A stretch of 31,327 nucleotides of DNA from Pseudovirgaria hyperparasitica (lineage: Eukaryota), in NCBI GenBank assembly GCA_010093815.1, contig ML996569.1; one strand, given 5' to 3'. This document shows, in pieces, positions 1 through 31,154 of the stretch. Made by a program: the position numbers and the translations under genes. How positions within the stretch are numbered: the stretch's first letter is position 1; each line of letters starts with the position of its first letter. The notes under the pieces were generated by a model that saw nothing but the letters and a program-made list of their open reading frames with translations, searched no databases and was not told where the DNA came from.

Positions 1-850
1 AGTCCATTATATCTTCCTTTACTAGCGTAATAATATAGGCGGGAGGTATGTTTTATAAATTATAATTAAGATAGTAGCTACTAAGATTAATATCTCCGGC
101 GGCTGTCTAGGCCGATTATACTAGTATCCTAAAACTATCTAGGCTACTATCTAGCCATATATTAAGGCGATCGAATACCGGTAGTAACCGGCCTAAAAAT
201 ATTATAGCGATTAAAATCTCTATTATTATAAGGTACCGGTCTCGTTCGTAAGACTAGAGACTATCTCTATAGGACTACCTCTTTTCATAGATAGTTAGTT
301 CCCTCTCTACTACCATTTCTCCACCTTCTTCTATTAAGCTAGATAGCTAATACGGTGGAGGAGAGGATATAAGGCCGTTATATCCCCGGTTACTATTACG
401 GTAGAATATTACCGTAACGTCTAAGCTATATAGGGCGTTACTACCACATTCGCTACCGGTATACCTAGACTACTAGGTTATTAGTAGATAAACGAACGCG
501 TCGAGATAAGCTAGATATATATATACACGTTTTTTATATTAATAGCTATCGTGTAAGTCCCTATTATTAATACTAATACGTGTCTACGTTATATCGTATC
601 TTCGTTTACCTATCCCGTTTGGTTTACTATGGTTACTAGATTATCTTCTATTAGTATTACCGCCACGGTAGCTAGATAGTCCCTTAACCGTCTTCCGTGT
701 TAGAGGTTCTATAGAGAAGATATATAAGAGATTAGTAGATATTTTCATTAGTAATGGGTCGGTAACCTACTAGGTAATAACATTAGATAGTGGGATAATA
801 ACTAGCTAGTAGACACGATAAAGGTTTAGGCGTAGACTAATATAGTATTT
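1..850 (-). pseudogene. Possible RIP-degraded gene divergent from the transposase, running off the window
   Basis: Coding-like minus-strand stretch with mostly TAA/TAG stops; no recognisable motif; boundaries approximate. Confidence 0.25.
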
Positions 851-1087: not shown

Positions 1088-1974
1088 ATGCCATAGGCCG
1101 TAGTCTCCTACTAATACTATAGTAGAAAGATTAGTAGTATACACTATATAATCCGTAGACACTATAACTTAGAACCATATAGACGAGCACGGCTTACCGC
1201 ATCGCTATTATTATTATAACTATTAGGCCCGTGGCTACTACTATCGACCGGGTTACGGCGCGGCTTTAGTACTCGTAGTTATATTAGTCGATAGAACTCT
1301 TTAGTTCGCTCTATTAGTATTTAGCCGTCGAGCGTTAATTAGGAGTCCGAGTCTATAGAATTAGGTACTTCTACTACTAATATTACCCTATATAAAGATA
1401 CTACTATTTTCCCTAATCCTATTTCGGACCTAAAATCTATAGATAGCGTTACTAGTAGCCATGGTATCGATTTAGTATATTAGTCTAATATATATAGTAG
1501 AAATACTATATCCATGGCGACGAGAGTATCTAGTACTATATATTTAATAAAAACGTTCGAAGAGGAGAGCGGTATATATATTATAGTAGACTAGAGTAGA
1601 CGTGATAATCCGTCCGACGTAAGTATATATAGTCTAGGTTTATAGTAGTAACTAATTTAGTAGGCCCGATTCGGTTAATTCAATAGTAAGTTTATAGAGC
1701 GCCTTATAATATAGACGAATCGGTTCGGTATTTCGAATATAGTATACGATAAATTAACTACTATCCTTAAATAGACTTCCGCTATACCCCCCGACCTTTT
1801 TATACTAAAATCTAATATCGTATATAAGTAGTTATTATACTACCCTAAAGGGATACCGCACGAAAGTTAATAGCGTAGCTATAACATATTCGGCACTACC
1901 ATAGTTAAATACTAGTATAGGGATCCGCTTACGTTAGTGGAATTCCTCCTTAGATACCGACCGTTCGCTAGTAA
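1088..1974 (+). pseudogene. Plavaka transposase, 5' part (N-terminal Zn-finger-like motif), interrupted by the Gypsy insertion
   Basis: ATG at 1088, then one frame with only TAA/TAG stops. It reads VKY*YRDPLTLVEFLLRYRPFAS, matching the Plavaka 'yRDpl..l..ll..p.f' segment. Removing 1975-9329 joins it in frame to K-LMFKPVR*FTSLGDRVY at 9330. Confidence 0.8.
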
Positions 1975-7761: not shown

Positions 7762-9062
7762 AGATTCTTATAGTTAGGCGAAATATATCCTATTTCTCTA
7801 TACTTATAGTAACGAAGTGCGCTATAATCCTACTATTTTACGATAGGCGTTATATTTAAGCCTATACCTTATCCTTTTCCGTGTTAAGAAGCACCGCCTC
7901 GATTATTTCGGTATCCTCTTAACGCGTTTCTACCCCGATTTACACTCTTCTAGCACTAATCGTAGTAAGGTTACTCTTAATCGAATATATTCGATCGACC
8001 TCGTTTCTAACCCGTATAGGGTTCGTCGGTTTTACCTAGAGAGCCGCGTTTCTTAAGGATGCGGTAGCATTTATTAGCTTTCTTCTCTAATTCGTATAGA
8101 TAGTTAAAACTTAATAATACTATTCCTAGTCTTTCGCGGATTAACGGAAGTAGTACTTCGCGAAACTAGAATATACGAATATTTTCCTATAGCGTAGGAA
8201 TATTATCCTATAGGTTTTAGAGGTATTATAGTAGTTAAGTAGGTATCTAGTTCGGTCGTTATACCACGCTTCTTAACTTAGATAGTGCCTTTCTTTTACG
8301 TTCTCTATCCGTTCCGAGGGTGTTTAGTATAAATATAGCTAAATATTCCTAGGTTATCGTAGATAGTGGCTATACTTTCTTCTGTCTATCCTATTAATCG
8401 CGGGATTATAAGCCTAGGTATCGTTCTCCGAACGAAATGCGTTATACTTTAGTAGAAAAGAGTAGAGAGTTATCGAGGAAGTACTTTTCGTAGTCTCTCT
8501 TCTAGTCTTTCTACTCCTTTTAGTTCTTCCCTATAAATATAGTTAGGTCTTTAGGTTTTAGTACACCTAGAGAAGGAGTAGGGTAAATCGGCAACGAAGC
8601 GGTCGGGTATACGGTGGATTATCGCAACTCTAATGGTAGGTAAACTAATTCCGCCTAAATTGGTGTAGGAAGTCGTCCACCTACTATCGTTCGGCGTAGT
8701 TCTTTAAGAGACTCCTTAAGTTCTTATCTCTTTACGAGGAGTTTCGTGCGTTCTACCTATTCTTTAAGAGTTTAAATCTCTCGAGCCTAATTCGCGACGT
8801 ATTCCTAAAGTTCGGCGATGGTTTATTATAATACCTCGCGTAGCTCCGCCACGACTCGTTATCCGGCTTTATATTATTAGAAGTTACTCGGCGTATCTAC
8901 TATTTCTTCGTCTAAAAGCTCCGTGATTCAGTCTAATATTTCCACTTCTCGGTTAGAAACGGCCGGGATTAATACCGATTATAGAGGATCTCTATTATTT
9001 AATATAGTGTTACTTATCCGTATAGTGGATCGTGTCGATCTTCTCGGTTCTAGTTAGACTAT
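7749..9062 (-). pseudogene. gag: Gypsy gag with C-terminal CCHC zinc knuckle
   Basis: 438-codon frame from a likely RIP-altered start (ATA). It ends in YYKYREIGYISPNY, which restores to C-x2-C-x4-H-x4-C, then an A7 run (7755-7761) and TAG. pol lies in the -1 frame. Confidence 0.85.
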
Positions 9063-9096
9063 CTTAACTATAGTACTATATAGGGAGTAATTCGAA

Positions 9097-9324
9097 TGTA
9101 AGAATAGGGTTATTAAATAGTAGTATAGTTAGATAGAATAATAGGGTGTATTCTATCACAGAATAAATTACTACCGAACCCTTTCGGTAGGAATCCGAGA
9201 GTATATATATAAAGAGACGCCGATCTATCTAGCACGTAACTATTTACCGCCCTTTACGTCACCTCCTAACCCTGTTAGCTAAGGTACGTGTAGGTCGGGT
9301 CCTGCCTAAGGCTAAGTCCTAACA
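9097..9324 (-). repeat. 5' LTR of Gypsy family A (228 bp)
   Basis: Minus strand TGTTAGGA...TTCTTACA with canonical TG..CA ends; TSD AGTAA adjacent. Confidence 0.95.
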
Positions 9325-9329
9325 AGTAA

Positions 9330-11769
9330 GCTCATGTTTAAGCCGGTACGATAATTCACTAGTTTAGGCGACCGGGTATATAATAAAGCCTATATAGTAG
9401 ATGGTTAGTAGGATATACACGCTACTATTCTAGATAGTACTATCGTTATCCCTATTATTTTATCTTCGGATAAGACGAACCTTACTAACTATATTAGTAA
9501 TAGAGTAGCATGGCTAGTCTACCTATCTATTTATAATCTACTACTAAACGTCCACTTATCTAGGAGTCTACTATTATTTCTACTACTTACTCTATTACTA
9601 GTAGTTAAGCTAGAAACGGTAGCGAATCGCTTTATATTCCATTAGATTATAAGTAAAGTTCTAGCCTATATATCCGCCTATAATAGAGTCGTTAACTATA
9701 CTAATCATTATATAGCGTTATAGACTATATAGAGTACTAGAGTATTAGTATTATATACCGATGGCGGCTCGCGTAAGTACTATCCGCGTTTAGCTTTATA
9801 TATTATAGATTTTCCGGAGTAGGTACTTATCACGGGTGTATCCTATCGGTATGCATATCTAACATATATAGTCCCTAGTAATAGACGACAGTATCTACGA
9901 GAAGCCATTACTAGTATATAGGAGTTCCGTATATACTCGTCGTTATAGGAATAGATTTACCGTATATATCGTGAGTTAATAACTAATAGCCATAGTAGCG
10001 AGTACACTAGTAGTAAGATAGATAATAGGATAAGTATACCTAGTGTCTTATCGTTTTCGTCGACGTCTTTCGCGCTAGTAGTATAGGGCTATTATATTCG
10101 CTAATCGGTTAAGAGTCGGTATTCTAGTAGGTGGATAGAGCCATTAGATAATTTCGCCTAGTTACTTACTAGAGTTAATATATACCGCGCGGTCGCTCTG
10201 GACATTCTACATCAACTATATAAGGGCATATTAGAACACACGTTTAATTAGATAGTCTTATATATTATTAATTAAGAGCGTACGGGACATAAGTTAAAGG
10301 GTATATTTACTAGTATACCCCCTATAGAACGAGTAAAGAAGGCAATTAATAAGCGATTCGCGTCTATTAGGGCATTCGGTCGTTATAACCCACTTACGTA
10401 TATAACTTTAGTAATATAATAGACGGGGGCGATGTTTAAGCGTATACTAGTAGTGTTTATAGTCGCGTTTAAACCGCTCCTATATTATAATCGACACTTC
10501 CTAAGCGTAGTACGGGCGGTTATTAATATATATATATTAGCGGCGTACTATACGCATAATACGCAGACACTAGTATACTTAGAAGAGGCTATATTACGCT
10601 TAGACGACCTGAAATACTAGTTTACACCATATCGTGGAGACAAATCGGAGGATAATCATTTTAACTTTCCGAAGTTCCATATATTATCGCACCTAGTTAA
10701 TACTATTAAATACCATGGTTCGTTATATCTAATATCGGTAGAGCTACTAGAGTAATCTTATATCGTAGTAAAGGAATTATATCGAGGTTTAAACAAGAGG
10801 GAGACGTTTCTATAGTAGATGCTAGTAGTAGACACACGCACGACGAATACTAAAATCTCTAGTAGTATAGAGGTGGCGGCTAGTACTAGTATATTAGTGG
10901 CCCCTAGCCTAGAGTAGCTCGATAATACACGTAAGCTAGTTAGCTAGCGGCGTATTCTAAAGAAGCCACGCTAGAGTAAATATACACTCTACGTCTTATA
11001 GAGCCATAGACTATCTATATTCTACTAGACTACCGTTAGCAACCTCTATAACGTATATAGTAGTAGTTTTATATTACTTAATACGGTTATACCCTTTATA
11101 CGCAACTATTATAATTAGCTTATTAGGGATAATATATTAAAAGGTGCGAATATCGAACGTATTAAAAAGGACCCTTCGTGGGCACGGGTCCTTCCTATCT
11201 ATATATATAAGACTATGTACGTGCCGATATAACTAGATAGAGACATATCTATAGAGGCCTTCGACCCGATTCGGGTAAGGTATACCCGTAACTAGAAAAA
11301 GAGTGGTAAGGCTAGGGAGGATTATATAATAGTATAGGAGTTTAATAAGGGTAGTAACTACCTTAACGGGAAGCGGGTTAGTAAAGTCCGTATATTTCTA
11401 GAGGTATATAATATAGAGAGTATCGACGTAACTAGTGGTATAGCGGCGCGATTTCTAGGTACGTTAGTTAAACTACTTAATAACTCGGGTAGAGGTAATA
11501 TTAATACTATTAGTAGCCTTATACCATTACGTATAGCGGGTTAAAGGTCTAGTAATAAGACTCGTATGATAGATAGGTTCCGTGTCTATAAGCTAGAGTA
11601 TATCCTACGCCCTATATAGGTTATATTACGTTAGTTAGTTATAGATAGTTTATTCTAGTTAAACACGTATAGTAATTAGGGGATCTATAATAAGGTATAT
11701 AACCTAGACTTCTAGGCTATGAATAGACGAAACGTAACCGTAGCGTTAAAACACGGGCGCGTATCATAA
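9330..11769 (+). pseudogene. Plavaka transposase, core and 3' part
   Basis: Frame from 9331 reads IPIILSSDKTNLTNYISNRVAWLVYLSIYNL, DGGSRKYYPRLALYIIDFPE*VLITGV, ALDILHQLYKG, HFNFPKFHILSHL...YRGLNKR and F*LNTYSN*GIYNKVY. These are recognisable Plavaka-family motifs with RIP changes. Includes track ORF 10432-10620. The 3' end is approximate. Confidence 0.85.
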
Positions 11770-12216
11770 GTCTATCGCTATCTACCGCCGCCTACCGTAG
11801 TATACCGGTATATGCCGGCATATAGCGGAAGTTATAGTTTATATATAGTAGCACTTGATAGTCGTATCCTACACTAGGATATCTCTAAGGAATAATTATA
11901 GTTTATTACGATCGGTTCTATAAAAGGCTTATATTTAATAACTATCTATAATTTCAGCTAAGGAGTATCTAGGGATACACCTCCTTATTACCTAATAATT
12001 ACTAGCTAGTATAAAAACTCCACGCCTCTAAAAGGGGCATATAGAACTTAAAGGATCCTTATTCACGGGTAGAACTAGACGCGGATAGCATTAACCTAAT
12101 ATAGATAGATTATATACATTAATACCCTAAAATCCGAACTATATCTCTAGGCCCACTAGACCTAGCTCGCATCTAATCCTAATATTTTCGTTATTCGCGT
12201 TTATACCTTATTAGAT

Positions 12217-14451: not shown

Positions 14452-15334
14452 ATGGCGGATACCTTACTAGATTTAGGTCTTTCGTCGATAGTATATAGGT
14501 ACGCCCTAGTCCACTTAATATAGACGTAGTCGACGCTTTACCTACTTAAACGATAGATATTAATAACGACGCGACTAGTATATTTATCTATTATATTATT
14601 AGCTAGCTAACGTTATATTAGGAGAGTCGAGCGCCGCCGTCCCGCCTACTCTATCTATCGATATTAACATGCTAGCGATTATAACCCAATCGCCTTACGA
14701 ATCGATATATAATACTAGTATACTCGAGAGTTCGAGCGAACGTATAAAAGTCTAATATTATATACTATTTAGGGCCGGGGAGGAAGCGCCTACCGGCGTA
14801 GTAGTTATTAAGGCGATAGTAGAAGTCTATATATAACTAGATATACTAAGTCCGCCTCCTTCTTATATGGTCCTATCGCTAGATAATATTACTAGTTTTA
14901 ACATTATAGAAGAGGAGTTTATAGACACGAACCCATGAATATCGGTATAACATTGGCTCGATAGTACGTATTATAGTATAAGGCAAGTTATATTTAAGCG
15001 GTAGTTAGACACGTACGCTAGTATACTAACGGATATATAGTATCTCTACCATGAATAGAATAGGCAAGGCATAGCTAGTAATATCTTACTATCTAGAAGA
15101 GATAGTTACCGTAGAATTTGGGAGATAGGCTCGGCGTCTATAGTATTAGTATATTAGACGGTTAAACTTTTATATAATACTATTTACTTATACCTATATT
15201 CACCTAAGCCCTAATTCGATAGCCTTCTATAACGTACTATATACTCGGTCGGTAAGCTACTAGACTTATATAATAGTAGCATACTACCCTACTTTATATA
15301 CTACTTAAGCTACTATTACTTTAGCCTACGTTAA
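14452..15334 (+). pseudogene. Unknown gene, RIP-degraded
   Basis: Long frame from ~14630 (AAVPPTLSIDINMLAIITQSPYESI...) with transition-type stops only; the ATG 14452 start and a possible 5' intron are tentative. Confidence 0.4.
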
Positions 15335-15616
15335 TCTTAGCTTCCTTTAGTCGTCCCTATATTATAAAAGAAAACTTCTATAAACCTTTCCTCTACTTAT
15401 CTTGGTTTTTAAACCTAAATCTTACCTTCTATACTTTATTCCGTGTTAATCACGACTATATACGAACGCTACGTTAAACTCGACTCTATTAACCCTTAAG
15501 GTCTATTCTATATAATAGTTAACGAGGTCATATTTATAGTTCATAATATGGATTAAGAACTCGTTATATTCGGCGATGTTTAGGACTAGTCTACGCTTAA
15601 CGTAATTAAGCCTTAT

Positions 15617-15940
15617 GTTTAAGCCGAGTCTCACGTTTAAGTCGAGCCTTACGTTTAAGTTAAGCCTTATACTTAAGTCGAGCCTTACGTTTAAGCCGAG
15701 CCTTACGTTTAAGTCGAGTCTCACGCTTAAGCTAATCCTTATATTTAAGCCGAGCCTTACGCTTAAGCCGATCCTTACGTTTAAGCCGAGCCTTACGTTT
15801 AAGCCGATCCTTATATTTAAGTCGAGCCTTACGTTTAAGCCAATCCTTATATTTAAGCCGATCCTTACGTTTAAGCCGAGCCTTACGTTTAAGCCGAGCC
15901 TTACGTTTAAGCCGAGCCTTACGCTTAAGTCGAAGCTTAC
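15617..15940 (+). repeat. 18-bp coding tandem repeat, 18 copies, ancestral (V-Q-A-E-P-H)n
   Basis: Unit GTTTAAGCCGAGCCTTAC, in frame with the helicase as GTT TAA GCC GAG CCT TAC. CAC survives in some units. Confidence 0.9.
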
Positions 15941-18900
15941 GATACGACTACCATCTCGACCGATAATAAACCACTCGTCTTTAGTATACTTACTAGTAAC
16001 TACCGTCCTAACGACGAGTATAAACTCAAGAAGGTCCAAAGTAGTAAGGCTCCCGTTCCTACTTATACTACCTATTAGATCTCTCTTATATAGGGCGATC
16101 TATAGTTAACCTTTAGAAATATCTATAGTATTAGTAGAGAAACAGATAGACTTAAGTAGAAATAAGCGAAAACTCAAGCCGAGCTTAAGCTAGTAGTATT
16201 TAAGGCTCGTGGTAAAGGTCACGGCTTTAAAGAGTCGATTAGTTATATATATAGATTTCTTAAATTCCCTAAGTACCGCTCTTAGATTAAGTTACGTGCT
16301 CGCTTCCGATAGATTAATAAAGGGAAATCGGTATCCTTAATAAGCTTACTCCGCTTTAATCGTACTAATATCCTTCTATTATCCGACCACTCTATAGTAT
16401 AGATCTTTAAGGTTAAGTAAGTAGATAACTTTATTAAGTATTTTCCTAAACTTCCTAATCTTATTATAAGCGAAGCGGATAAAGCTAATATACTATATAT
16501 TAACACCGGCCTCTACGAAGACCCTCGCGACTTTTAGGTTATTAAACTTATAGCTAGCGAGCTTCTTAGTATAGGTTTTACCATCCCGTTATATATCGGA
16601 CCCGATATAATATATAAACGAGTGAAGTAATTCTTCGAAGATCTAGGTGCTTATACTATAGTTCGTATCTTACTACCGCTACGTAACCCTATGAATCTTA
16701 CTAGCTTTAATAATAAGCTTAAACTAGAGAGTAATCTAATTAATTCATGGTATATAGGAGTTACTACTCCCTATATATAATACGGTATAATAAGTAGGCC
16801 GGACACTTAGCTCTAGATCTCTATTCCCTACCGCGAGTCATTTAATAAGAAATTCGACTACCTAATATATATTACTATAAGTACCTTATAAGACGAATAG
16901 ACGGATCTTCTATTATCCTAATTCCAAGACATTACTATCGGGTATATCTAGCTCTTAGGTATTACTCGGGCGCTCTTAGCTATCGTCTATCCTATTAATA
17001 CGAAAGAATTCTATTATATAGAACTAGGTAGTCGTAGGTACCTTAAAGTAGATTTAAAGGATTATAATAACGACGCGTACCGCTTTAAAGTCCTTTAATT
17101 TCGCCTAGGCATCCTTCTATTCGAATGCCTCGCTCTAAAAGTCTTCGATAAGGTTAGGCGTCCTTCTAAAGTATCTAAGGTACCGATTATATTAATAGAT
17201 ATAGTTACTAATGTAACTCGAGCTCGTCCTAAACATTTTATTCGGACTAGCGATACTAGTTTAAGTACGATCAGGTTATCCCTTACTACGCTTATAGGGT
17301 TTACGGACGTTCCGGCTTTAGTTAGCGTATAAACCTACGATAAGCTTACTAAGTAACGCATTAATACGTGCTAGAAACTAACCTACCACGCTATATAAGC
17401 TCCTAGAGACGGCGGCGTAGATGACCATGCCGCTTAGGATACGTTTAATATAATAGTCCTTAATATTATTATAGACTCGGTATCTATATCTCTAATATAT
17501 GGGTCCTCTAACCCTAATAATAAGATTCTAGATTATAGTACGGAGCCTTAGAATACTCTCGTTACTCTTTCTAAATTATCTATATCCCTAGATAATAATA
17601 AGGACACGAATATAGAATATAGTCACGATGTTATTAGCGACGAAGGTTCCATTACTAGCCCCGTTACTAATATATATATACTCCTAATATCGTCCAAAGT
17701 CTACTCTAGTATCCTATCCCCTTTACCACCCTCCGTATAGAACCTAATACTTAGTAATAACTACCTAAATCTTTAACCCGTTAACTATAACCGCTACGTT
17801 AAAGATTATAAAAGATTCCACGATCTCTAGGATATTATACGTTCGGAACTATCTCCCTAATAATAGTATACCTATATATAGGCGACGGACGCACTTAGGG
17901 CTTAGTTCCTACTTCACGGCTATGGAGGAGCTAGGAAGAGCCATTTATAGCTTCGTCTACTACTAGCTACACTTCTAATTAACGAAATAAACGGTACTCC
18001 TATCATCGCTTATACTACTAAGGTAGTTATTCTATCTAGCGATATAATAGCGTACCTCCCTACGCTAGGTTCCACCTAAATATATAGAATATATATACAT
18101 GTTATTATCGGCCTAACTAACGAAACCTACGACGACGCTATAAGAAAAGCATATGAATATACGAGTAATATATTTACTCGCTATAAGTCTCTAAAGATAC
18201 CGGTTATTCTTCGAAGATGCCCCGAAGCCGTTAATTAAGAGGTTTTCTTTACTATAGCTAGACTATCTCGTTGCGGTAACCCTCTTATTAGGCTAACCTA
18301 GAACGATATAATAGGCGGTACCATCCTCGTGTAAGCCTAGGCCGACTATAGTAAACGACCATTAGAATATAGTACGGATCCCCGTGCTCGTCTATAGGAA
18401 CTATATACTAGTTATATTACGCTCGAGGTCGTTAGACTCGTTAAATCTTAATACTAATATAAATAGATCCCTAAGAATTTCGAGAAAGAAACGGCTTAGC
18501 TATTACGCGCTATCTATAAATATTATACTTATAATAAGGACATGCCTAAGGAGAAGTATAATAGGATGAACGAGCTATACCTCGCTATCTAGGACCTAGT
18601 TACCATCCACGCCTAGATTTATATAGGGACCCTATATATTATAAACATCGCTAAGGTAGCCCGTAATATATATCCGATTTTAGTCGTAATGGAAGAGGCC
18701 ACGTATATCCTTAAAAGTAATATACTCGGGATTATCGTTAATTACACTACTATAGAATAGTAACCGACATTTATTTATATCGGCGACCCACGCTAGCTTA
18801 ACACCTACTAGCGTAATAGTACTAATATATAGGCCGCGAACTAGAGAATCTCCTTTATAAAGCGCTAGATATAATATAGTTTCCCGACTACTCGCCTTAC

Positions 18901-19930
18901 CGAGTTAGAACGCTTAGTTCCTAGGATAATAAACGTTATATTACTAATTACTTACTTAGACGAGCTAACAACCTCGCCCCACATAATAAATAATATTAAT
19001 ATACCACTTACAGAGACCGTTCGACAAATATTTAGAATCCGCGGCCATTAACACGTTATATATACTAACGTCGACGGGGATCACGCGTATATAGTAAATA
19101 ACTTAATATATAATATAGACTTATTACGTTTTACTTAGTAGATTATTACCAAGCTCTTCTATTATAGCGTTGCACTCGATCGCGTACTCTATATTTCTAT
19201 ATACGCTACCCAACGTAATCTATTTAAAGGAATAGTTAGGAACTCGCTTCTAACTACACTTACCGCAGCGGATAAAGCTCGATTTAATACCCTACCTAAG
19301 CCGGTATAGAAGCTTATCTAATAGCGTTCATAGGACGGTTCTTAGGGTTATAATAACGATATAGTCCTTATTAACCTAGTCTAAACCAATCGCTTCGGCT
19401 TCCTCTCGGAAGTAAACCGTAATATTATTACTATTACGCGCGCTAAATAGATAATGGTTATTATCGCTAACTTTATATCTCTTAAGAGGTAGAAAGTCCT
19501 AGACGGCGTACTCGGCGAGATATAGAATAAGTACTCTAAGATTCATGCGATATACACGTACATGACCCCTAACCTAGATAGCCTCCCTCTACTCTCTAAT
19601 ATATCTAATCTCTAATATAGTCGCTCTATACTTAGTATTAGAGAGAGGGGAGAACGAAGTAATTAATAAACTACCAATAGTACTAAGCCCCGTAAGCCGC
19701 TAGTCTACCATAAATATAACGTCGAAGGATATAAGTCTATTAAGTATCTAAGAGGGTCGACGCTTATATATAATAACTATTAGAATATCGGCTATAAAGC
19801 TAATGTTTACTCTAAACCCAAGACGCTTACGGGTACGTTTTACTATAATTATAGGACTACTAGTTATACTTAGCGTTATTATCCTAGCCGTACTAAATTA
19901 CCAGCATGCATAAATAGTAATAATCTAGTT

Positions 19931-20014: not shown

Positions 20015-21029
20015 AATAAAGTAACTACTAGCGGCTAGGATGATAGAGACTACGAGGATACCGGCCGAGATAGCAGTATTACGACATATAAAGACATAGA
20101 AGTTAATTAGTAATAGTATATAATTAGACTTACGTGTTAGGGCTACTTAGTTACGGCTTCTTAGTAAGTATACCTTTATATCCATTTTAGATATAGTTAC
20201 GACATCCTACTAGGTAGATAGTTTAGCTCTATTAAAGACCTATTAAGGGTATTTCTATTACGTCTACTCTAGTATAGACGCGCTATTAGATAATACGGCG
20301 CCACTAGGCACGTTAACTAGTACCCACCGATTAAGAAATAAACACGATTCTATATCTACCGTAAGCCCTAGCCTAATAACGTAGGCTTCCTTTAGTTATC
20401 CCCTTTATACTTTTAAAACTACTTCTAGCCTTTATATCGGGAGATATTACCACCTAAAGAGAAAATATAAAAAAACATACGCCCTAATCAAAGCCTCCAC
20501 CTTTAGACTTTAACTATAATATATACGGGATATAGTAAACCTAAATATCGCATACTTCAAAAGCATAGAAGGATACGATACTTAAATATAACAAAATATA
20601 GGCTTACAATACTCGGAGAGTACCTAGGGATAAGTATATAAATATAAAATGGGATAAGACTAACGCGGCACCTCGTATATGCGTAGCCATATACCGTCCT
20701 AGACGTAGTCGCCTATAATATAATATTACGAGATAAGAATCATGGCTATCTAATTCTATTAAGGGTATTAGACGATATAAAGTAAATAACTACACGCCCG
20801 ACCACGCCACGCTAAGTTACGTACGTGTTATAAACGCGTGTTCGAGGAATAATAAGGATATAAACGAGGTTCACCTAGTAGGTGCCTCGTTATTCCGGCT
20901 TCTACCTCTATCGTCTAACCTATACCTTCGTCTTCCTCGCGCCCACGATATACCACGCGTATACTATATAATTAGTCCGTAAATTATAAACACTATATTA
21001 ACTATATACGTTAACTATACACGATTAAC

Positions 21030-21482
21030 ATATCGAATCCGATTCTATAATAAAGTAACCGTCCGAATATAGTAATTACTATAGCACTACTTCGTATCTT
21101 AAGCCTAGATATATAAGTAAAGCGTGAAGCTATAGAGGCGCGTATAAGGTAGCTATATATAGAAGTATATACGGCTACTCCACTCGCAGACCATAGGTAT
21201 TAAACTAAGAACAAGCTCGGCGTAAAAAGAGCACGTAAGATTATTAATAAGGTAGTAGGCGAATTCCTAGTAGTATAGAAAAGAGTAGTAGAGTGCATAG
21301 AGATGAAGGCGCTATACCATATCTACGACCAGGTACGCACTATAGTATAATAATAATAATAATATTATATAACTAGGTAGAGTAGTACTCTATAGGCCTA
21401 TGCCTCCTCTAGTCTAAGCCACTATATAAGAAGAAACCCCATAGGGAAAAACTTCCTTATATCTATAACTACATCTCGTTAA
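21030..21482 (+). pseudogene. Small unknown helical protein gene with poly-Gln remnant
   Basis: Frame reads ALLRILSLDI*VKREAIEARIR*LYIEVY...KALYHIYDQVRTIV, then (TAA)5, likely from (CAA)5. Confidence 0.45.
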
Positions 21483-21689
21483 ACCTCTATTTTATCTTAA
21501 GTATATAGCTATAGGGTACGCCTATTAGCCTATAGCCTATATTACCGTTATTTTACCCTTAGGCAGCACGTGTAGGTGCGGAGGTTATTAGTTAAGGGCT
21601 ACCCTTAACTAATAATCGGGGTTCTCCCGGGGTTCTTCCGGTATGTATCGGGTTGCTACCGGCGTATACCGGGTCTCTTCCGGTATATA

Positions 21690-23250
21690 TTTCCGGGTCC
21701 ACTGGTACTGGAGGAGTGGTAGATGTGTAAGCATCCATCGGGATACGCACTATAGTATAGAAAACCGTATATTATAGAAAAACTATCTCCGAGTATAAGA
21801 AGAGGCGCATAATTATAGCCCTACATTCTACGACCTTATAATCCCCGCCTATCACGACCTTATAACCTCCGCCTATCGCGACCTTATAACCCCCGCCTAT
21901 CACGACCTTATAGCTCTTATATACCACGACCTTATAGCCTATACTCGTAGCGGTCCCATAGCCTACTAACGTATATACTATAAGAAAAATTAAATTCACG
22001 ATTAGGTTTAACGACAACACATTCCTTAAAATACTAGTACCTATATCTAACTAGTAGAAAGACCATAGCGACGCTTCGTGTGTTAATTTAGTAGTATTTA
22101 TATAGTAAATTAGGGTCTAATACGCAACGAAGACTAGGAGGGTACTTAACTAGAGCCGTACTACTATACATTCTATCGTGCTAGTAATCGAGTATACGAT
22201 AAGTAAAACGGAACTAGAGGTAGATATTAGATAGCTCCTATAGTTAGTAATCGAATATATCCTAGAATATAGTAATAGTATAATACTCCTCGGCCTTAGA
22301 TAGGATATAGATAGTATACCCGAAGTAAAACGAAATATAAACCAGCGACTAATATATAATAGTATAGACGGCTATATATAGGTTACGCTCGAATAAATCC
22401 GCCCCTCCGTCCCTAATACTACACTCGCTACGATTAGTATAATAATAGTAATAGAAAGCTACCGCCTATGACGGTAGAGATACCCACGGAGATAGTATTA
22501 TAGGTAGTAGATAGCATTACCTAAACGACTTGACCCTTCCTCTAGCGATACTATATATACTACTATTAGCACCCGGGAAGTCGCGAGACCGACCTATAAG
22601 CTCTAAAGATAGTAACTTTAAAAGCCTTAAAAGTACCTTAGATATAGAGAATATAGATATCGCTTTCGAAGACTAATAGAATAATAAAAAGGGTGCTAGA
22701 GGTAGTAAGAGTAGCGTGCGTACTTAGCTAAGGCGATGCAATCCGACGTAAGACGGCTTCTACCTACTATATATTAGTATATACCTAATTCTACTAGCTA
22801 TATAACTATAGCGTATATGTTCGGTTAAGACGTTACGATACTAGTATAAGCCGGCGTCTACCTAGTTCACGTCGGGATACGCCCGGTTCTACTAGCTATA
22901 TTATTACTACGACTATAATTATATAAGATCTACTCTAATAATTAAACATTTACTTATATACTTTACTTTCTCCGTACTTATTAAAATTATGTTATAATTA
23001 CTAAACGCGGCGACTTAACTCCTACCGCCTAAATCTAGTTTTCATATCTTATCGCCATTAACGCCGTCTTACTACCTATAGCCTAAGTCATATATAGAAA
23101 TAGATAGGTATAACGAGAGTCATGACTATCCTAGTTTAACTACTAGCCATAGAATGGCTAACCGTAACACGCATATACGACGTATAGAGGCCTTAAGTAT
23201 TAGCGCCCTCCTACCTTATATCTAGTACCTCTAAGGCCTATACCTAATAC
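21690..23250 (+). pseudogene. Unknown coding region, either a separate gene or the N-terminal part of the SNF2 gene
   Basis: Coding-like frames with TAA/TAG stops, including the TTL*PPPI repeat; continuity with the downstream gene not resolved. Confidence 0.35.
21830..21949 (+). repeat. 24-bp tandem repeat, 5 copies (T/A-T-L-Q-P-P-P-I)
   Basis: ACGACCTTATAAYCYCCGCCTATC-like units start at 21830, 21854, 21878, 21902 and 21926; the last two are degenerate. Confidence 0.85.
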
Positions 23251-23495: not shown

Positions 23496-24395
23496 TAGTT
23501 ACCGCTGGAATATAAGGAGAAAGATAATATAGAAGATACTAAAATAGAAGACGACGTAGCTAGTATACTTAGACACATATATATATACACGGTCCTAGAT
23601 ACTAATATTAGAGTAGTATCGAATATAGGCGCGGTTATAACCACCGATATAGATAATCCACCTATGAATATCGTCGTGCCTAGCGAAGCTCATCCACGCG
23701 TAAATACACCAGCCATAGAGATATAGTTATAGTTACCGCCGGAATATACAGAGAAAGAGAACGTAGAAGATACTAAAATAGAAGACGACGTAGCTAGTAT
23801 ACTTAGATATATATATATATATATAGTTCTAGATGCTAACATTAGAGTAGTATCGAAGATAGGTGCGGCTATAACCACCGACATAGATAATCCATCTATA
23901 AATATCGTCGTGTCTAGCGAAGCTTATCCACGCGTAAANNNNNNNNNNNNNNNNNNNNNNNNNNNNNNNNNNNNNNNNNNNNNNNNNNNNNNNNNNNNNN
24001 NNNNNNNNNNNNNNNNNNNNNNNNNNNNNNNNNNNNNNNNNNNNNNNNNNNNNNNNNNNNNNNNNNNNNNNNNNNNNNNNNNNAGAGTAGTATCGAAGAT
24101 AGGTGCGGCTATAACCACCGACATAGATAATCCATCTATAAATATCGTCGTGTCTAGCGAAGCTTATCCACGCGTAAACACACTAGCCATAGAGACATAG
24201 TTATAGTTACCGTTAGAACATGCGGAGAAAGAGAACGTAGAAGATACTAAAATAGAAGACGACGCAGCTAGTATACTTAGACACATATATATATATATAT
24301 ATAGTCCTAGATACTAATATTAGAGTAGTGTCAAAGATAGGTGCGCCTATAATTACTAATATAGATAATTCCCCCACGAATGCCGTCGTGTCTCT
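23496..24395 (+). repeat. 234-bp (78-codon) tandem repeat, 3-4 copies, spanning an assembly gap
   Basis: Unit starts at 23496, 23730, (23970, in gap) and 24204; encodes LPxEYxEKxNxEDTKIEDDVASILR... Confidence 0.9.
23939..24083. other. Assembly gap (145 N)
   Basis: Run of N. Confidence 1.
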
Positions 24396-26736
24396 AGATA
24401 CTAGCGAGACTTATCTACGGCTACTAGAAATAAAGAGGACACTCTCGGATAATATAGTAAATCTAGTCGATTCTCCGAAACGCCTAAAACTAGAATATAT
24501 TATACTACTAGATGTCGACTAGTAGACATGTAAAAACCAGGAACTGTTCGGGTTAGTAGATAATTTATATAGTAGATATACATTGGATAGTACATTAGCG
24601 AACGGCCTTGACTTTAAAATCCTTTCTATAGACGACGACTCTAATAGAGATAAAGCAAAGCCAGATATAGAGGACTTAATTCCGGTAGATAACGATATTA
24701 GTACGAAACTATAGGAAGCGTAAGTCACACTAAGAAGTAAGTAGGAATATATACTACCATACTAATGTATCTATAGAATATTCGCCGTTAATAACTCCGA
24801 TAAAGTAGTCTAAGCTATCTCTTATTATACGGAAGAGATACGGTTACTTACTATAAGTATATTTAGGCTTACGCTAGATAACCTAATAAAGAAGTTCGGC
24901 CATATACCCACTCTATATCTAGCCTTTAGTATAAGTAGGTTATATAGGCTATAGGCCGGCTAGTTACTCGCGGTAGTTACTATATTTAAGTAGTAGGTAG
25001 GTCTATGGAAGTACCAGATCTTAGTAGATAGCCTAGGGCTAGGGAAAATAATCGTGCTTATAACGTTCATCCGCCTCGTGTTTTATTAGGACTTTCTACG
25101 CGATAATATAGAACTTAATCTAGAAAATCATCTATAACCGACTTAAGACTTAGGTATGGATAGGAAGTGCCCGATATAATCTCTGTATCCGATTAAATAT
25201 CCGTGTAGCTAGACCGATGATTTCGTCTATATACCCCGCCTTCAAGGACCATTTATACTATACTACCTAAGGTCCCTTCTAATAGCGTATTAGCCGTGGC
25301 GCTTTAAATAGATATATAATAATACGGATAGTATATTCACCGATTAAATTAATAAACGGAACCCGATAAAGATAATAGTATGGCTAGCGTACTCGAAAAC
25401 CCTTACTAACGCCCCTAGTATCCGATAATTCTCGCATGTAGACCGATAATACTTAGCTAAGAGATACCTACACCCCGAATAGAAACACAGCGTCGATATT
25501 AGTAATACTACTAAATTCGAGACTGACGAGGAGTATATTATTAGGGCATGGTTAATTCCCGTTAATAGAACCGCTACTACTAAATTTCCGTCGCGATACG
25601 CGAAGAACTATATAATCTATAGCACCGTCTAGAGTATAGAACCCTAATATCTTAAATCTTTTAAGGGACGCGTGGTTATAAGAGTAAAGAGGGCGAAATA
25701 ATTTAGTACTAAAAACACTTAAACTCGCGAAGTAGCATTCCTTAGTATATTAATAGTAGACGAGTTCTATTCCGCAAAGAACCCCGATATAAAACAGTAT
25801 AAATATACGATATATAATACCCTTATATTTAGTATATAGGTTAGTGTAACGCCCCTCTCGAATAGTCTAGTAGATATTCTAGTAGCTATTAAGGTAGATA
25901 CTCCGGATAAGTTACCCGACTACGTCGATAATAATACTACTAAAAGGGTATTCGAGAGCCTATAGAATAAAACTATAAGAAAGATTATTATAATATAGTC
26001 GAATAAACTCCTTAGTTTAATAAAAGGCAAGCCGGCGGACACGATGGCCGCGATAGTCCGTAGGGCATTAGAAACCATAGAAGGTAAGCGCACACTACGT
26101 ATGGTAGCCAATTAGTATTTACTATTTATTCTATAACGGGGACTACTAACTAAATAGTTTAATGGAGAGGTATATCTATCTACGACATTAAAGCTAGTAG
26201 TAGAGTTTATATCTATCCCGGCTATAGAACTAGAGAAGATAATTATACGGTTATACGAGAATAGAGGTAGATAGTTTAATAATCTATAGCCTAACGGAAC
26301 GCCGCGGGACTTATAGGTATAATCTACCGCCTAGAGTAAATTGAAAGGGGGTACCGGGTCCGGGCTTAACGTATACTACTATTAGGCTAGGCTAGCTACT
26401 ACGTGTATACTACTTATATACCTTACTAATAAAAAGATAGAAGACGAGTAAATTAATATTACGCTTACGCGTCGGAGGAATAGTAATAATAGTATACTAA
26501 GTAAGATAATCGCTAATCCTATACACAAAGCACTCCTATAGCTAGATAAGGCTATATAAAAGGAGATAGTATCGCTAGCTAATAAACACGCTTCGAAGGT
26601 AAACTAGATCCGTAACTTTATTAATAATAATATTTATAATAAAAGTACTAGACGCGCGCGACGAACATCCGCCAACCGCCTAGAGAAAATCATACTTACA
26701 TGTGCCGTACCGGTAAGCTTAATATTCCTATACTTA

Positions 26737-26785
26737 GTAAGTATTTACACTACCTACTAGTAACGTAATTCACTAATATATATAG
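26737..26785 (+). other. 49-bp spliceosomal intron in the SNF2 gene
   Basis: GTAAGT donor, CTAAT branch-like site at 26773, TAG acceptor; splicing joins the helicase-C motifs in frame. Confidence 0.75.
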
Positions 26786-27387
26786 GTACTACGTCCATAT
26801 ATATAAGTAAAAATATTAGTATATTTACTAGCCGGCCTAAGTACGTCCGAATTAAATAAGGCATATAGATTATTTAGATTAACCAAGTCAGATTCTCTAT
26901 ATATTCTACTAGTATTAGCTTCGTAGGTCTGCGAAGGATAAGACCTAATAGTCGCCGGTTTTATAGTATTAGTAGACTAATACTTACGTAAGGAGACGTG
27001 GCCGTAGGTAAGTATAAGATATTATCGCTATAGATAATATCGGCCTATAGTATATACGTATACTTTAATTTTAGACTATTTAGAGGTTAAGGCTAGACTC
27101 GCCGCGTTAGATAAGATAATCGAAAGCACGAGGATATAAGCCTTGGACCTAGGAAAAGGAGATATAGCTATGGTAGAGATAGCTATACCTAATATACTAG
27201 TAATAGGTGTACGCTTTAATTCTATAGAGATATAGTAGTATAGAAGTAAGTAAGGTAGTTAGTCAATTAGCTTCTAAGAGACTAGATAGCATGGTAGTAT
27301 AAATATAAACCGCTGTTTACTCGTGATTATATATCTATATATATCTATACGTGAAGAGAAATAAGATATTTATTCTATACTATTATA

Positions 27388-27698
27388 TAGTAGGACGTTA
27401 CTATATATGCCGGCATATAACGGAATATTCCGATATACGCCGGTATATTATAGGATATTCCTAGATACTTAAAGTATAGTCGTAGTATAAAGTAGTATTA
27501 CTATTATATGCCGGCATATAGTAGGACGTTACTATATATGCCGGTATATAACGGGATCATGTTCTAATATACTATACGCCGCCGGTATATTATAGAATAT
27601 TCCTAGATACTTAAAGTATAGTCGTAATATAAAGTAGTATCGCTATACTATACTAGTATTTAGTAGGACGTTACTATATATACCGGTATATAACGGGA
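27388..27698. repeat. Subterminal ~131-142-bp tandem repeat, 2.3 copies
   Basis: TAGTAGGACGTTACTATATAT(G/A)CCGG(C/T)ATATAACGG at 27388, 27519 and 27661. Confidence 0.85.
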
Positions 27699-27739
27699 TT
27701 AAACGTTTTCTTAACGTTCGATAGAACGATTCTAAAAGA

Positions 27740-27914
27740 ACCGGGACGGCTCTAGGAGAACTAGAATAACTCCGGGAGGACTAGGACGACTCTAGGAGGA
27801 TTAGAATAACTCTAGAAGTACCGGGACGACTCTGGGAGGATTGGGATAACTCTAGAAGTACCGGGACCCATTTAGGATAACTTTAGAAGTACCGGGAGAC
27901 CTAGAAGCATTGGG
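27740..27914. repeat. Terminal 20-bp-period repeat array ending in GGG, the putative right end of the DNA element
   Basis: Six regular 20-bp units like ACCGGGACGACTCTGGGAGG / ATTGGGATAACTCTAGAAGT, then shorter units. Gypsy protease sequence begins immediately after. Confidence 0.8.
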
Positions 27915-28219
27915 AGCGCCGTATCTTTCCTAATGTAGATACTATATTTAATAGTATAGGTGCCGTGTAACTTAATAGGACCGTCGATACTATAGAATAT
28001 AGTATCTATTAGAGCTAGGATATCGGTATTAAGTTCTCGTGCTCGTTAGGTCGATATAACATTAGTAGCTAACCTACTATTAAGTATTATAGTCTAATAT
28101 TATCCACGAGGGACCTCGATAGGTCTAGCCTATAGTTTAATATACTATTTAGCGGATTACCCCTCTATTATAGTCGCGCCTATAAGTCACGAGGGTTTCT
28201 TATAGGCTATTAGTTTTTT
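27915..28219 (-). pseudogene. pol: Gypsy family B pol N-terminus (aspartic protease), truncated
   Basis: ILNSRLATNVIS (~28087-28052) restores to ILDSGSATNV.S, in the -1 frame relative to gag. Confidence 0.7.
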
Positions 28220-29592
28220 ATATTCTATACTAGATAGTTAGGCGCGATATATCCTAGCTACTAGCACTTATAGTATATAACTAGTTAGTTAGTTATATTA
28301 GTACCCGGTAGCTTCCCTAAACGGTACTTAGGTACTATATAGTCTATTCTACTATAGGTATAGTAAGTAACTTTAGGTCGTTTATACGAGTCGGTCCTTA
28401 TATCTTAATATATCGATTAGTAGGGAGATCCACGATATAATCCGCGTGGTTTTAAATTTAAGGCGTGGTAGTAGCCTCGTAACGTCCCGCGAGATCTATT
28501 ACTAAATCGGTTTTAGTTAGACGATTTTACGTTAGATTAGATCGTTAGGGATAGTCATGCACTAGCACGGCGTTAATTATTTATTATACGCTAGTATCGC
28601 TCCGCGAGATTTATAAGAGCTTAGAGGTCTATAGAGATTATCGTTATAAGGTTAAGATAGTCCTTTATATTTAGGGTAAGGGACCGTTTAAAGTCGTTAT
28701 ACTATTAAATTATATAATCTTCTTCGGCTTCTCTCTAGAGAGGCTAAAGGTATTTAAGGAGTTATAATAGTAACTAATTATCTTATTATCGAGTCTCGAA
28801 GATATAGCCCTAGGCCTAGTCGCGTTATTTAGCCCTATCGCTAAAATATTAGAGGAGAAATTCGGTGAACGTGTCCTAGTTATAGATATCCTTAGAATAT
28901 TCGATTCGGTATACTATCTAACGTTCTAAAGGCGTCGGGTCGAGGTAGTTCTAGGCGAATCTAATTTTATTACTATCGTTCGTGAATAGATAGAAGAATC
29001 GGCTATATTAGTAAGTCTATACGTAGAAACTCTTTCTACTTTTACTATTAAAGTAAGGTGGTTTCTTAGGTCGGGGTAATTAGGATAGTAGTAGACTAGA
29101 ATAGATCGTTTTAGTTAGTATAGATCTATATAAATATAGATTAGTCGTTACTAGAACTAAAGCGTATAATATAGCTTTAAGTCTTATAGTACGTCCTCGA
29201 GCTTCGTCGAGTTTATATAGTTATTACTTAAGTTAAATCTATTATTACCTCTCTTTATATAGTCTAGTATATATATCGTTATAAGGTGTGGTTAATATTA
29301 GGCGATTCTAACGGATTAACTCGTTAACGTTAATAAGGTCTAGCCTCGTGTTAAGGTTAGGTCTAGTATAGTTTAAACTAGACTAAGATAGAGTATAATA
29401 GACTCCATTCTCGTATTCTATAATATCTTCTATAGTTATACGGAATATCGTGCGAGTTATCGGTGTAATAGCCTATAAGGTATAGTTATTAGTAGGGGTA
29501 GTTATAGATAGACTATTCTCCTCGTTTAGGTTAGGAGAAGGTCTACTATAAGAGGCGGTGCGACGGGTATTATAACGAGTAGTTAGAGCTAT
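28210..29592 (-). pseudogene. gag: Gypsy family B gag, two CCHC knuckles
   Basis: 461-codon frame: PKKPPYFNSKSRKSFYV*...KIRFA*NYL...*DTFTEFL, knuckles YYTYSRIDYIVPKY and YYKC**LGYIAPNY, ends AAA AAC TAA. Confidence 0.85.
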
Positions 29593-29811
29593 TTCTATAA
29601 ACTACCGTCGTGCTATATAAAGAGGAATTAAAATATAAGGATTATAGACGTAGGATAGTAGTCTAATAGATTATAGAAGGATTCGGGAATATATTTAAAA
29701 GGGTAGTCTACTCTCTTAATAAGGTTAATTTCTAAAGAGTAGGAATTAAGTATATGCGGTCTACTTATATAGTGGTCTCGCTTATTCTAGCTAGCTTACC
29801 CTAGGTCCACC

Positions 29812-30076
29812 TGTCACGGACCGTACTAGACCATAGTATTCTAGTTAAGTCTATCCTAGTGTTAGCCCTAACATAACTAGAGTCTTTCTACTATTATAAT
29901 CTATTATACTAAACCTTTTTAGAATATATTAAGAGTAAGCCTTTTAAGAAAGCTTAATTTAGTCTTCTTAAGATTAATTAATCTTAATATCTAATATTAA
30001 GCGTACTTCTCTAAGATCTTTATATTTTATATATTCTATAATCTATTACTTAAAGTATTAAATATAAGGTTTCTCC
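29812..30076 (-). repeat. Probable 5' LTR of family B (partial, interrupted)
   Basis: TGTCACGG terminus ~220 bp upstream of gag; no second copy in the window to confirm. Confidence 0.45.
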
Positions 30077-31154
30077 TATTAGGACTTAGCCTTAGATAGA
30101 ACCCGACCTATACGTACCTTAGCTAACAGGGTTAGAAGGTAACGTAAAGGGCGGTAAATAGTCACGTGCTAGATAGATCGGCGTCCCTTTATATATATAC
30201 TCTCGGATTTCTACCGAAAGGGTTCGGTAGTAATTCGTTCTATAATAGAATATACCCTATTATTCTATCTAACTATACTACTATCTAATAACCCTATTCT
30301 TATATTCGAATTACTCCCTATATAGTACTATAGTTAAGATAGTCTAACTAGAACTAAGAAGGTTAACACGATCTACTATAGGGATAAGTAATACTATATT
30401 AAATAATAGAGATCCTCTATAATTAGTATTAATCCTAGCCGTTTCTAATCGAGAAGTAGAAATATTAGACTAAATCACGGAGCTTTTAGATAAAGAAATA
30501 GTAGATACGCTAAGTAACTTCTAATAATATAAAGCCGGATAATAAGTCATGGCGGAGCTACGCGAGGTATTATAATAAACTATTACTAAACTTTAAAAAT
30601 ATATCGCGAATTAGGCTCGAGAGATTTAAACCCTTAAAGAATAGATAGAACGCGCGAAACTCCTCGTAAAGAGACGAGAACTTAAGGAGTCTCTTAAAGA
30701 ACTACGCCGAACGATAGTAGATAGATAACTTTCTATACTAATTTAGGCGGAATTAGTTTACCTACCATTAGAGTTATAATAATCTACTATATACCTAGCC
30801 GCTTCGTTACCGATTTACTCTACTCCTTCCCTAGATATACTAAAATCTAAAGACCCGACTATATTTATAGAGAAGAACTAAAAGGAGTAGAAAGACTAGA
30901 AGAGAGACTACGAAAAGTACTTCCTTAATAACCCTCTACTCTTTTCTACTAAAGTATAATATATTTCGTTTGGAGAACGATACCTAGACTTATAATCCCG
31001 CGATTAATAGGATAGATAGAAGGAAGTATAGCTACTATCTACGATAACCTAGGAATATTTAGCTATATTTATACTAAATACCCTCGGAACGGATAGAGAA
31101 CGTAAAAGAAAGGTACTATCTAAGTTAAGAAGCGTAGTATAACGACCGAACTAG
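30077..31154 (+). mobile_element. Second copy of Gypsy family A: 5' LTR (30077-30304) and 5' part of gag
   Basis: Colinear reverse complement of 9324 down to ~8247, differing by transitions where compared; match stops after AACGACCGAACTAG at 31154. Confidence 0.95.

Follow-up and report, generated by a model that had tools for sequence, protein, structure and literature searches.

The window, a stretch of 31,327 nucleotides of Pseudovirgaria hyperparasitica (G000:C5:1798001-1829327, in an assembly of 35.4 Mb), contains the right-hand portion of a DNA transposon, the Gypsy retrotransposon that it cuts, and further elements nested within it. The genes are broken by repeat-induced point mutation (RIP). 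The features are as follows.

1..46, minus strand: window part of a DUF6532 gene remnant, mapped from other copies; its remainder is upstream of the window and is interrupted by a full-length family-B Gypsy nested in it
1574..1974, plus strand: 5' portion of the gene for the Plavaka transposase, with an approximate start, mapped from copy C10
1975..9324, minus strand: family-A Gypsy, an LTR retrotransposon nested inside the transposase gene and splitting it, with a 5-bp duplication
9325..11770, plus strand: main part of the Plavaka transposase (DDE core), RIP-broken, with PF18759 at 9322-9876 (E=2.3e-18)
14570..19900, plus strand: long RIP-broken gene with an SF1 helicase (ends approximate); AAA_12 in copy C9, E=1.2e-7
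21347..21747, minus strand: nested SINE-like insert about 400 bp long, ending in poly(TAA) and accompanied by a 15-bp duplication; of fixed length and present in many copies in the genome
23376..24393, plus strand: tandem repeats with a 234-bp (78-codon) unit, lying immediately before the SNF2-like frame or at its start
24390..27000, plus strand: RIP-broken SNF2-like ATPase remnant (ends approximate, support moderate), from a RIP-aware score and a Pfam match below cut-off
27371..27699, no strand: subterminal 142-bp duplication with palindromic units, common to the copies
27722..27909, no strand: right subterminal 20-bp array, from repeat analysis of the sequence
27910..27935, minus strand: right terminal inverted repeat (TIR) of 26 bp, identical to the left TIR at 25 positions
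27936..27937, plus strand: 2-bp target-site duplication (TSD) TA, seen as an empty site in uninterrupted family-B copies; a second TA precedes the left TIR
27936..29873, minus strand: host Gypsy (family B), interrupted by the insertion within its protease; the 5' LTR, gag and the initial portion of the protease lie here

How decayed is this stretch? Its GC content is 0.32-0.40, its TpA/ApT ratio is 1.4-2.0 and its (CpA+TpG)/(ApC+GpT) ratio is 0.09-0.45, while only four stop-free frames of at least 100 codons are present across the window. Together these values amount to a signature of RIP, which would make the host a filamentous ascomycete. Between the core of the window and copy C10, 17,194 sites show 1204 transitions and 4 transversions, from which we conclude that the copies of the element were near-identical before RIP. 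Among six full-length copies (L083-L100) the C/T or G/A differences fall in the contexts CpG (1503), CpA (1294), CpC (318) and CpT (39). That CpG is at least as frequent as CpA at differing sites may reflect saturation of CpA or a CpG-biased RIP. The island as a whole is a deep nest of Gypsy insertions from about 30 kb upstream of the window onward; just beyond the host family-B LTR, positions 30058-31154 match 8247-9341 as an inverted LTR end of the family-A Gypsy.

Where does the element end on the right? The preliminary description had placed the end of a CMC-type cut-and-paste element in the region 27740-27930, where a 20-bp array stops and a family-B pol frame is interrupted. The tandem array is present at 27731-27867, the minus-strand Gypsy frame is indeed cut within its protease, and an end lies nearby, at 27935 and not at 27914 as had been proposed. 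A search with 27300-27914 gave 44 matches, from which 30 loci were taken (L001-L030); L001-L025 make up the right-end count, L026 had no match and L027-L030 duplicate earlier loci. In 25 of 25 distinct right-end loci the common sequence runs 21 bases beyond 27914, to 27935, and then diverges. In all 19 uninterrupted family-B copies the flank in the window is matched from 27936 onward, or from 27930 where chance extends the match, and the sequence before the junction is unlike that of the window. Because every right-end locus is shared up to 27935 and every family-B copy starts beyond it, we place the right end there. Copies that extend past 27914 with shared sequence, named in the preliminary description as the observation that would count against its end, thus exist, and the end at 27914 is refuted.

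The right terminus is 5'-CATTAGGAAAG; the element accordingly begins 5'-CAT(T/C)AGGAAAG and not 5'-CCC. The AGC at 27915-27917, previously read as an AG or AGC target duplication, belongs to the TIR. Alignment to the uninterrupted family-B copies, which had been recommended, defines the empty site and identifies TA as the true duplication. That the 20-bp array stops near 27914, and that a CCCAA motif lies inside both TIRs, favours the older model of a 27914 end, a CCC terminus and an AG/AGC duplication; however, with 27915-27935 common to all the right ends and missing from all the family-B copies, that model has practically no chance of being correct. What it said of the type of element is borne out by the short TIRs, the 2-bp duplication and the subterminal repeats, as is the insertion into the family-B protease, whose frame resumes in frame across the junction. 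The units of the right 20-bp array are likely candidates for transposase-binding sites.

In the 60 kb upstream of the window there is a sole inverted match to the terminus, starting at G000:C5:1788103, about 9.9 kb before the window. The family-B Gypsy resumes immediately to the left of it. The left end is therefore upstream of the window, as are the remaining pol domains of the Gypsy (RT and RNase H), where they had been predicted. The two TIRs agree at 25 of 26 positions. An inverted 20-bp array, also predicted for the left end, is absent: read from copy C26, since part of the region is N in the copy of the window, the left end carries 10- and 18-bp arrays of its own, and the two ends of C26 share only about 44 bp.

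Do these ends behave as a pair elsewhere in the genome? Pairing by position and orientation among the loci taken gave 14 left-right pairs, the remaining ends having no partner among those loci or a discordant orientation. The 2-bp flanks match in 13 of the 14 (8 TA, 3 AA, 1 TT and 1 CG), against 5.4 expected on shuffling (p=5e-6). The pair with unmatched flanks is C9:1521162-1548194. Several discordantly oriented ends were seen at C1:2695158 and 2744547, on C40 and on C41, and a left end is doubled 130 bp apart at C8:1582803 and 1582933; ectopic recombination, rearrangement or assembly errors may account for the unmatched pair, the discordant ends and the doubled end. Two of 47 distinct ends keep CATCAG and read CATCAGGAAAG. 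Most others begin CATTA or TATTA, the RIP products expected from CATCA.

The lengths of the five uninterrupted copies are 21.9-22.4 kb, and these copies can be aligned over their whole span. The copy of the window measures 37.8 kb because a full family-B Gypsy, a family-A Gypsy and the SINE-like insert of about 400 bp are nested in it. Both nested Gypsys, the family-B element upstream of the window and the family-A element, are flanked by 5-bp duplications. The SINE-like element is probably a SINE; ARAGORN found no tRNA in the window. Of 584 genome-wide candidates for this element 40 were scored, and all of them match at near full length.

To read the gene content, copy C9 was translated in six frames, stops being replaced by X, and scanned with Pfam; the nested insertion and the terminal 500-600 bp were left out. 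The matches are Plavaka (PF18759, E=7.5e-31), DUF6532 (E=1.3e-4), AAA_12 (E=1.2e-7) and SNF2-rel_dom (E=0.009), the remaining frames giving one negligible match. PF20149 (DUF6532) has 10 matches, every one of them above cut-off and at an element position; the copy of the window is not among the ten. PF18759 is above cut-off at 24 loci, all broken by 6-13 stops. An 18-bp repeat (15609-15941) and the 234-bp repeats are in frame and vary in copy number between copies of the element. A second subfamily (C30, C9:1464448-1514772; L118-L125) differs from the first by transversions at less than 1% over the left 17 kb and at 3-9% over the right 5 kb. This mosaic suggests that the right 5 kb, the arm bearing the SNF2-like frame, may have been exchanged between subfamilies.

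To which family does the element belong? In the CMCT clade the DDE triad goes together with C(2)C and H(3-4)H motifs. The D, D and E positions of the DDE triad are kept in 11 of 11 copies. With positions set by eye against P0005, the first Cys of the C(2)C motif is kept in 6 of 11 copies and the second is Tyr in all 11, while H-x3-H is kept in 2 of 4; the losses in both motifs look like RIP-type changes. A word-indexed protein search with the RIP-broken transposase gave one match among 8000 scored candidates, a fragment from Emmonsia, through which intact relatives were reached at 22-27% identity (E 1e-44 to 1e-56), among them proteins named from Sclerophora and Chaenotheca. In the parts of Kojima (2025, PMC12730594) drawn on here, Plavaka lies within the CMCT clade, and PlavakaB is defined by 5'-CATCA..TGATG-3' ends and TSDs of 2-3 bp. 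The ends of PlavakaB-1_SLL given in its supplement are CATCAGGAAA..TTTCCTGATG, and the first ten bases are the same as in the two least-changed ends here. PlavakaA, with termini TGT..ACA, is excluded on that ground; the transposase tree has rows of neither reference set, PlavakaA or PlavakaB. EnSpm/CACTA sensu stricto has 5'-CAC, a 3-bp TSD and Transposase_21; here we find CAT, a 2-bp TSD and no Transposase_21 match in the Pfam scans. Starships carry a tyrosine-recombinase captain as their first gene and lack the classical combination of TIR and TSD. The present element has a DDE transposase, TIRs and a TSD, and no recombinase match appeared in the six-frame scans of C9 minus its terminal 500-600 bp. 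An ESTA element, with its fixed TA duplication, is contradicted by the TT, AA or CG found in 5 of the 13 matched duplications. We conclude that the element is, very probably, a RIP-destroyed 22.1-kb PlavakaB (CMC/CMCT) DNA transposon with its right end at 27935 and the cargo listed above, identity, ends and cargo being judged jointly.

The SF1 gene has the motifs of an Upf1/ZNFX1-like helicase (Walker A at 17906, Walker B at 18686, last motif at 19430), the in-frame 18-bp repeat, and eroded CCHC-type knuckles. A profile search matched 22 proteins among 1.84 billion, the best at E=7e-9; we conclude that no close relative of this gene is on record. All nine of the relatives scanned are AAA_11/AAA_12 helicases. 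A PDB sequence search gave five weak matches, the best being ZNFX1 (E=1.3e-4).

The identity of the second cargo gene, probably a remodeller, is weakly supported. Its frame has a motif I at about 25018 and a DEF motif at about 25753. SNF2-rel_dom reaches E=0.0018 in C14, 0.051 in C10 and 0.12 in the window, below cut-off in these three copies. Searches with the remnant found no match in PDB sequences and none among 7470 candidates of the word-indexed protein search, and its AlphaFold model, with a pLDDT of 27.5, is unusable. Between the subfamilies the frame is kept across 740 codons, with four indels, all in frame. Purifying selection was not detected, for transversions between subfamilies are spread 55/45/54 over the codon positions, with no third-position excess; this even spread gives no sign of amino-acid constraint. 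The pattern as a whole fits relaxed or diversifying evolution and not strong constraint. The genome has further RIP-broken SNF2 stretches, which form part of an unrelated repeat. That second RIP-mutated repeat, of at least 15.8 kb (L111-L117; G000:C3 end, C10 start, C2 start), lies near contig ends; its copies are 93-95% identical, carry an SNF2-type helicase of their own and have no DNA similarity to the Plavaka element.

Are such genes found beside intact Plavaka transposases? A metagenome scan with the intact transposases gave 526 relatives, from which 78 loci were kept. The best-scoring of these against the transposase of the element, L174, is not RIP-mutated. It encodes a transposase and, downstream, a helicase with AAA_11, AAA_12 and zf-CCHC (E=6e-26), the only SF1 gene beside a Plavaka among the 78 loci. 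It also has a divergent SNF2 gene (SNF2-rel E=5e-14, Helicase_C exon E=7e-4), to which that of L152 is homologous (E=3e-28). A third locus, L131, has a Helicase_C piece upstream of its transposase. With tblastn, no SNF2-type gene turned up next to any of the remaining 75 loci, of which 32 are at least 10 kb long and many come from a few metagenomes. In a quick tree of 72 rows, from which low coverage excluded 15 of the 78 loci, the element joins L174, L152, L131 and the named ascomycete proteins (SH-aLRT 94), its own branch being long and of biased composition. SNF2-type genes flank three of the five loci of this clade, and the other two loci are shorter than 4 kb.

In RIP-aware scoring the L174 helicase picks the helicase tile of the element at z=11-15 in C9 and C10 and at z=7.8 in a third copy; it has five C-terminal CCHC-like spacings against two or three in the element. 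For SNF2, a profile of the L152 and L174 proteins against 1560 element tiles was not significant (best E=0.16), and hhalign found no match between the remnant and these proteins. RIP-aware scores rank the expected tile first for L152 in two of three copies (z=4-6), with off-target tiles reaching z=6-7 with other queries. The RIP-aware alignment to L152 and L174 is collinear through motif I and the CPC, DEF and TP motifs, and is only suggestive of homology. The gene order of L174 differs from that of the element, and DUF6532 was not found in the 12 of its 15 ORFs that were scanned. No TSD-bounded ends were found in L174, L152 or L131, the best end pairs of L174 being without a matching TSD. At L174:18700-19950 about 1.2 kb of 10-bp-based, partly inverted repeats adjoins a ..CTGATG site at 20159; by its letters it resembles a subterminal array.

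The order of insertion is plain: the family-B Gypsy came first, then the Plavaka element, then further Gypsy and SINE-like elements. For the family it is established that the copies are dispersed and near-identical, that they have TIRs, 2-bp TSDs and a Plavaka transposase, and that RIP killed them; the footprint is one of cut-and-paste. On the pattern of CMC/CACTA elements, the DDE transposase would have attached to the TIRs and the subterminal arrays; after excision, the element would have entered its new site, with no fixed target, through a cut staggered by 2 nt. The family spread in a recent burst; the copy of the window landed in the Gypsy protease and was later struck by two Gypsys and a SINE-like element.

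What role might be played by the helicases? We think it probable that an ascomycete Plavaka lineage carries the SF1 helicase and the SNF2-like ATPase as standing accessory genes, and that they are not one-off captures. If instead they were host genes captured once, in the style of Pack-CACTA, and useless to the element, their metagenome neighbours would be chance or separate captures. That account, which we judge rather unlikely, gains from the lack of codon-position bias in the SNF2-frame transversions, from the different gene order of L174, from the failure of direct SNF2 homology to L152 and L174 to reach significance, and from the named SF1 relatives, which are Aspergillus and Penicillium proteins of unstated genomic context. 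On the other hand, SNF2-type genes stand at three of the five clade loci and, by tblastn, beside none of the other 75, the SNF2 frame has survived over its 740 codons in both subfamilies, and C-terminal CCHC-type knuckles occur in the helicases of L174 and of the element alike, if eroded in the latter.

SF1 helicases such as SAD-3 and Hrr1 participate in fungal RNA silencing. The role that we favour for the cargo, as a tentative proposal, is anti-silencing: the SF1/CCHC protein would act on element RNA or on small-RNA silencing, and the SNF2 protein would open chromatin at the element. Comparable roles have been proposed for TET/JBP cargo (PMC12730594) and for the accessory genes of the red-algal Plavakas (bioRxiv 10.1101/2025.02.11.637652). 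The cargo might instead be standing but serve transposition, SNF2 clearing nucleosomes, or SF1 processing long transcripts or repairing the donor site. AcademH and Helitron elements use helicases of their own to move, synapsis may call for assistance when an element is large, and RIP killed all the copies here, so that any protection failed. But in the portions of the literature covered no helicase is described for the published 6-9-kb Plavakas, whose ends and TSDs are intact, and the accessory genes reported there for others of the group modify chromatin or DNA (TET/JBP; methylase, SET, 2OG oxygenase). A role in transposition is in our view unlikely. Anti-silencing, taken to its full extent, would mean that an undescribed ascomycete lineage of giant PlavakaB elements keeps a fast-evolving SF1/CCHC and SNF2 cassette against RNA silencing, heterochromatin or repeat pairing, a possibility that we regard as doubtful when all its parts are required together. 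If it is true, the two-helicase cassette would be the functional counterpart, in RIP-defended fungi, of the TET/JBP cargo of basidiomycetes, and the two subfamilies would have traded their right 5 kb, the part with SNF2; L174 and other intact relatives would permit a direct test.

Plavakas are poorly described beyond mushrooms, truffles and algae. The present family provides exact ends and TSDs in a RIP-type genome, in a 22-kb form with helicase cargo that would escape automatic annotation. Should the cassette prove conserved and functional, it would supply candidate transposon-encoded suppressors of fungal genome defence, so far proposed only for TET/JBP cargo.

How does the element compare with known systems? 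In the sections of the sources covered, the description of a helicase-carrying Plavaka was not found. A repeat of Stagonospora nodorum, X3X3R8 (PMC3017866), is likewise multi-copy and RIP-mutated with Rad5/SNF2-like helicase genes. Compared by description only, it is presented as a duplicated endogenous gene cluster with Rad6, and the parts of that article covered mention no transposase, TIR or TSD. An ascomycete Plavaka is already known from Tuber (PMC12581995), and shares the 2-bp TSD and the 5'-CAT terminus, its own being CATAC, with neither size nor cargo stated there; by itself, the terminus is thus ordinary. Giant cargo-bearing Plavakas are known from red algae (bioRxiv 10.1101/2025.02.11.637652). 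As far as the consulted text of that preprint goes, they resemble the present element in their size (17.4-19.1 kb), three accessory genes, internal repeat arrays and proposed anti-silencing; they differ in belonging to another kingdom and in carrying an adenine methylase plus SET, a ParB plus 2OG oxygenase and an uncharacterised gene. The PlavakaB families (PMC12730594, in part) have the same PF18759 transposase, a 2-bp TSD and CATCA..TGATG termini, here mostly CATTA. They are 6-9 kb long and come from Agaricomycotina, with TET/JBP as the sole cargo described, for which an anti-silencing type of role has been proposed. No TET/JBP match appeared in the Pfam scans of C9, where RIP could mask one. 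In contrast to those families, the element described here is 22 kb long, has been killed by RIP, and carries SF1, SNF2-like and DUF6532 genes.
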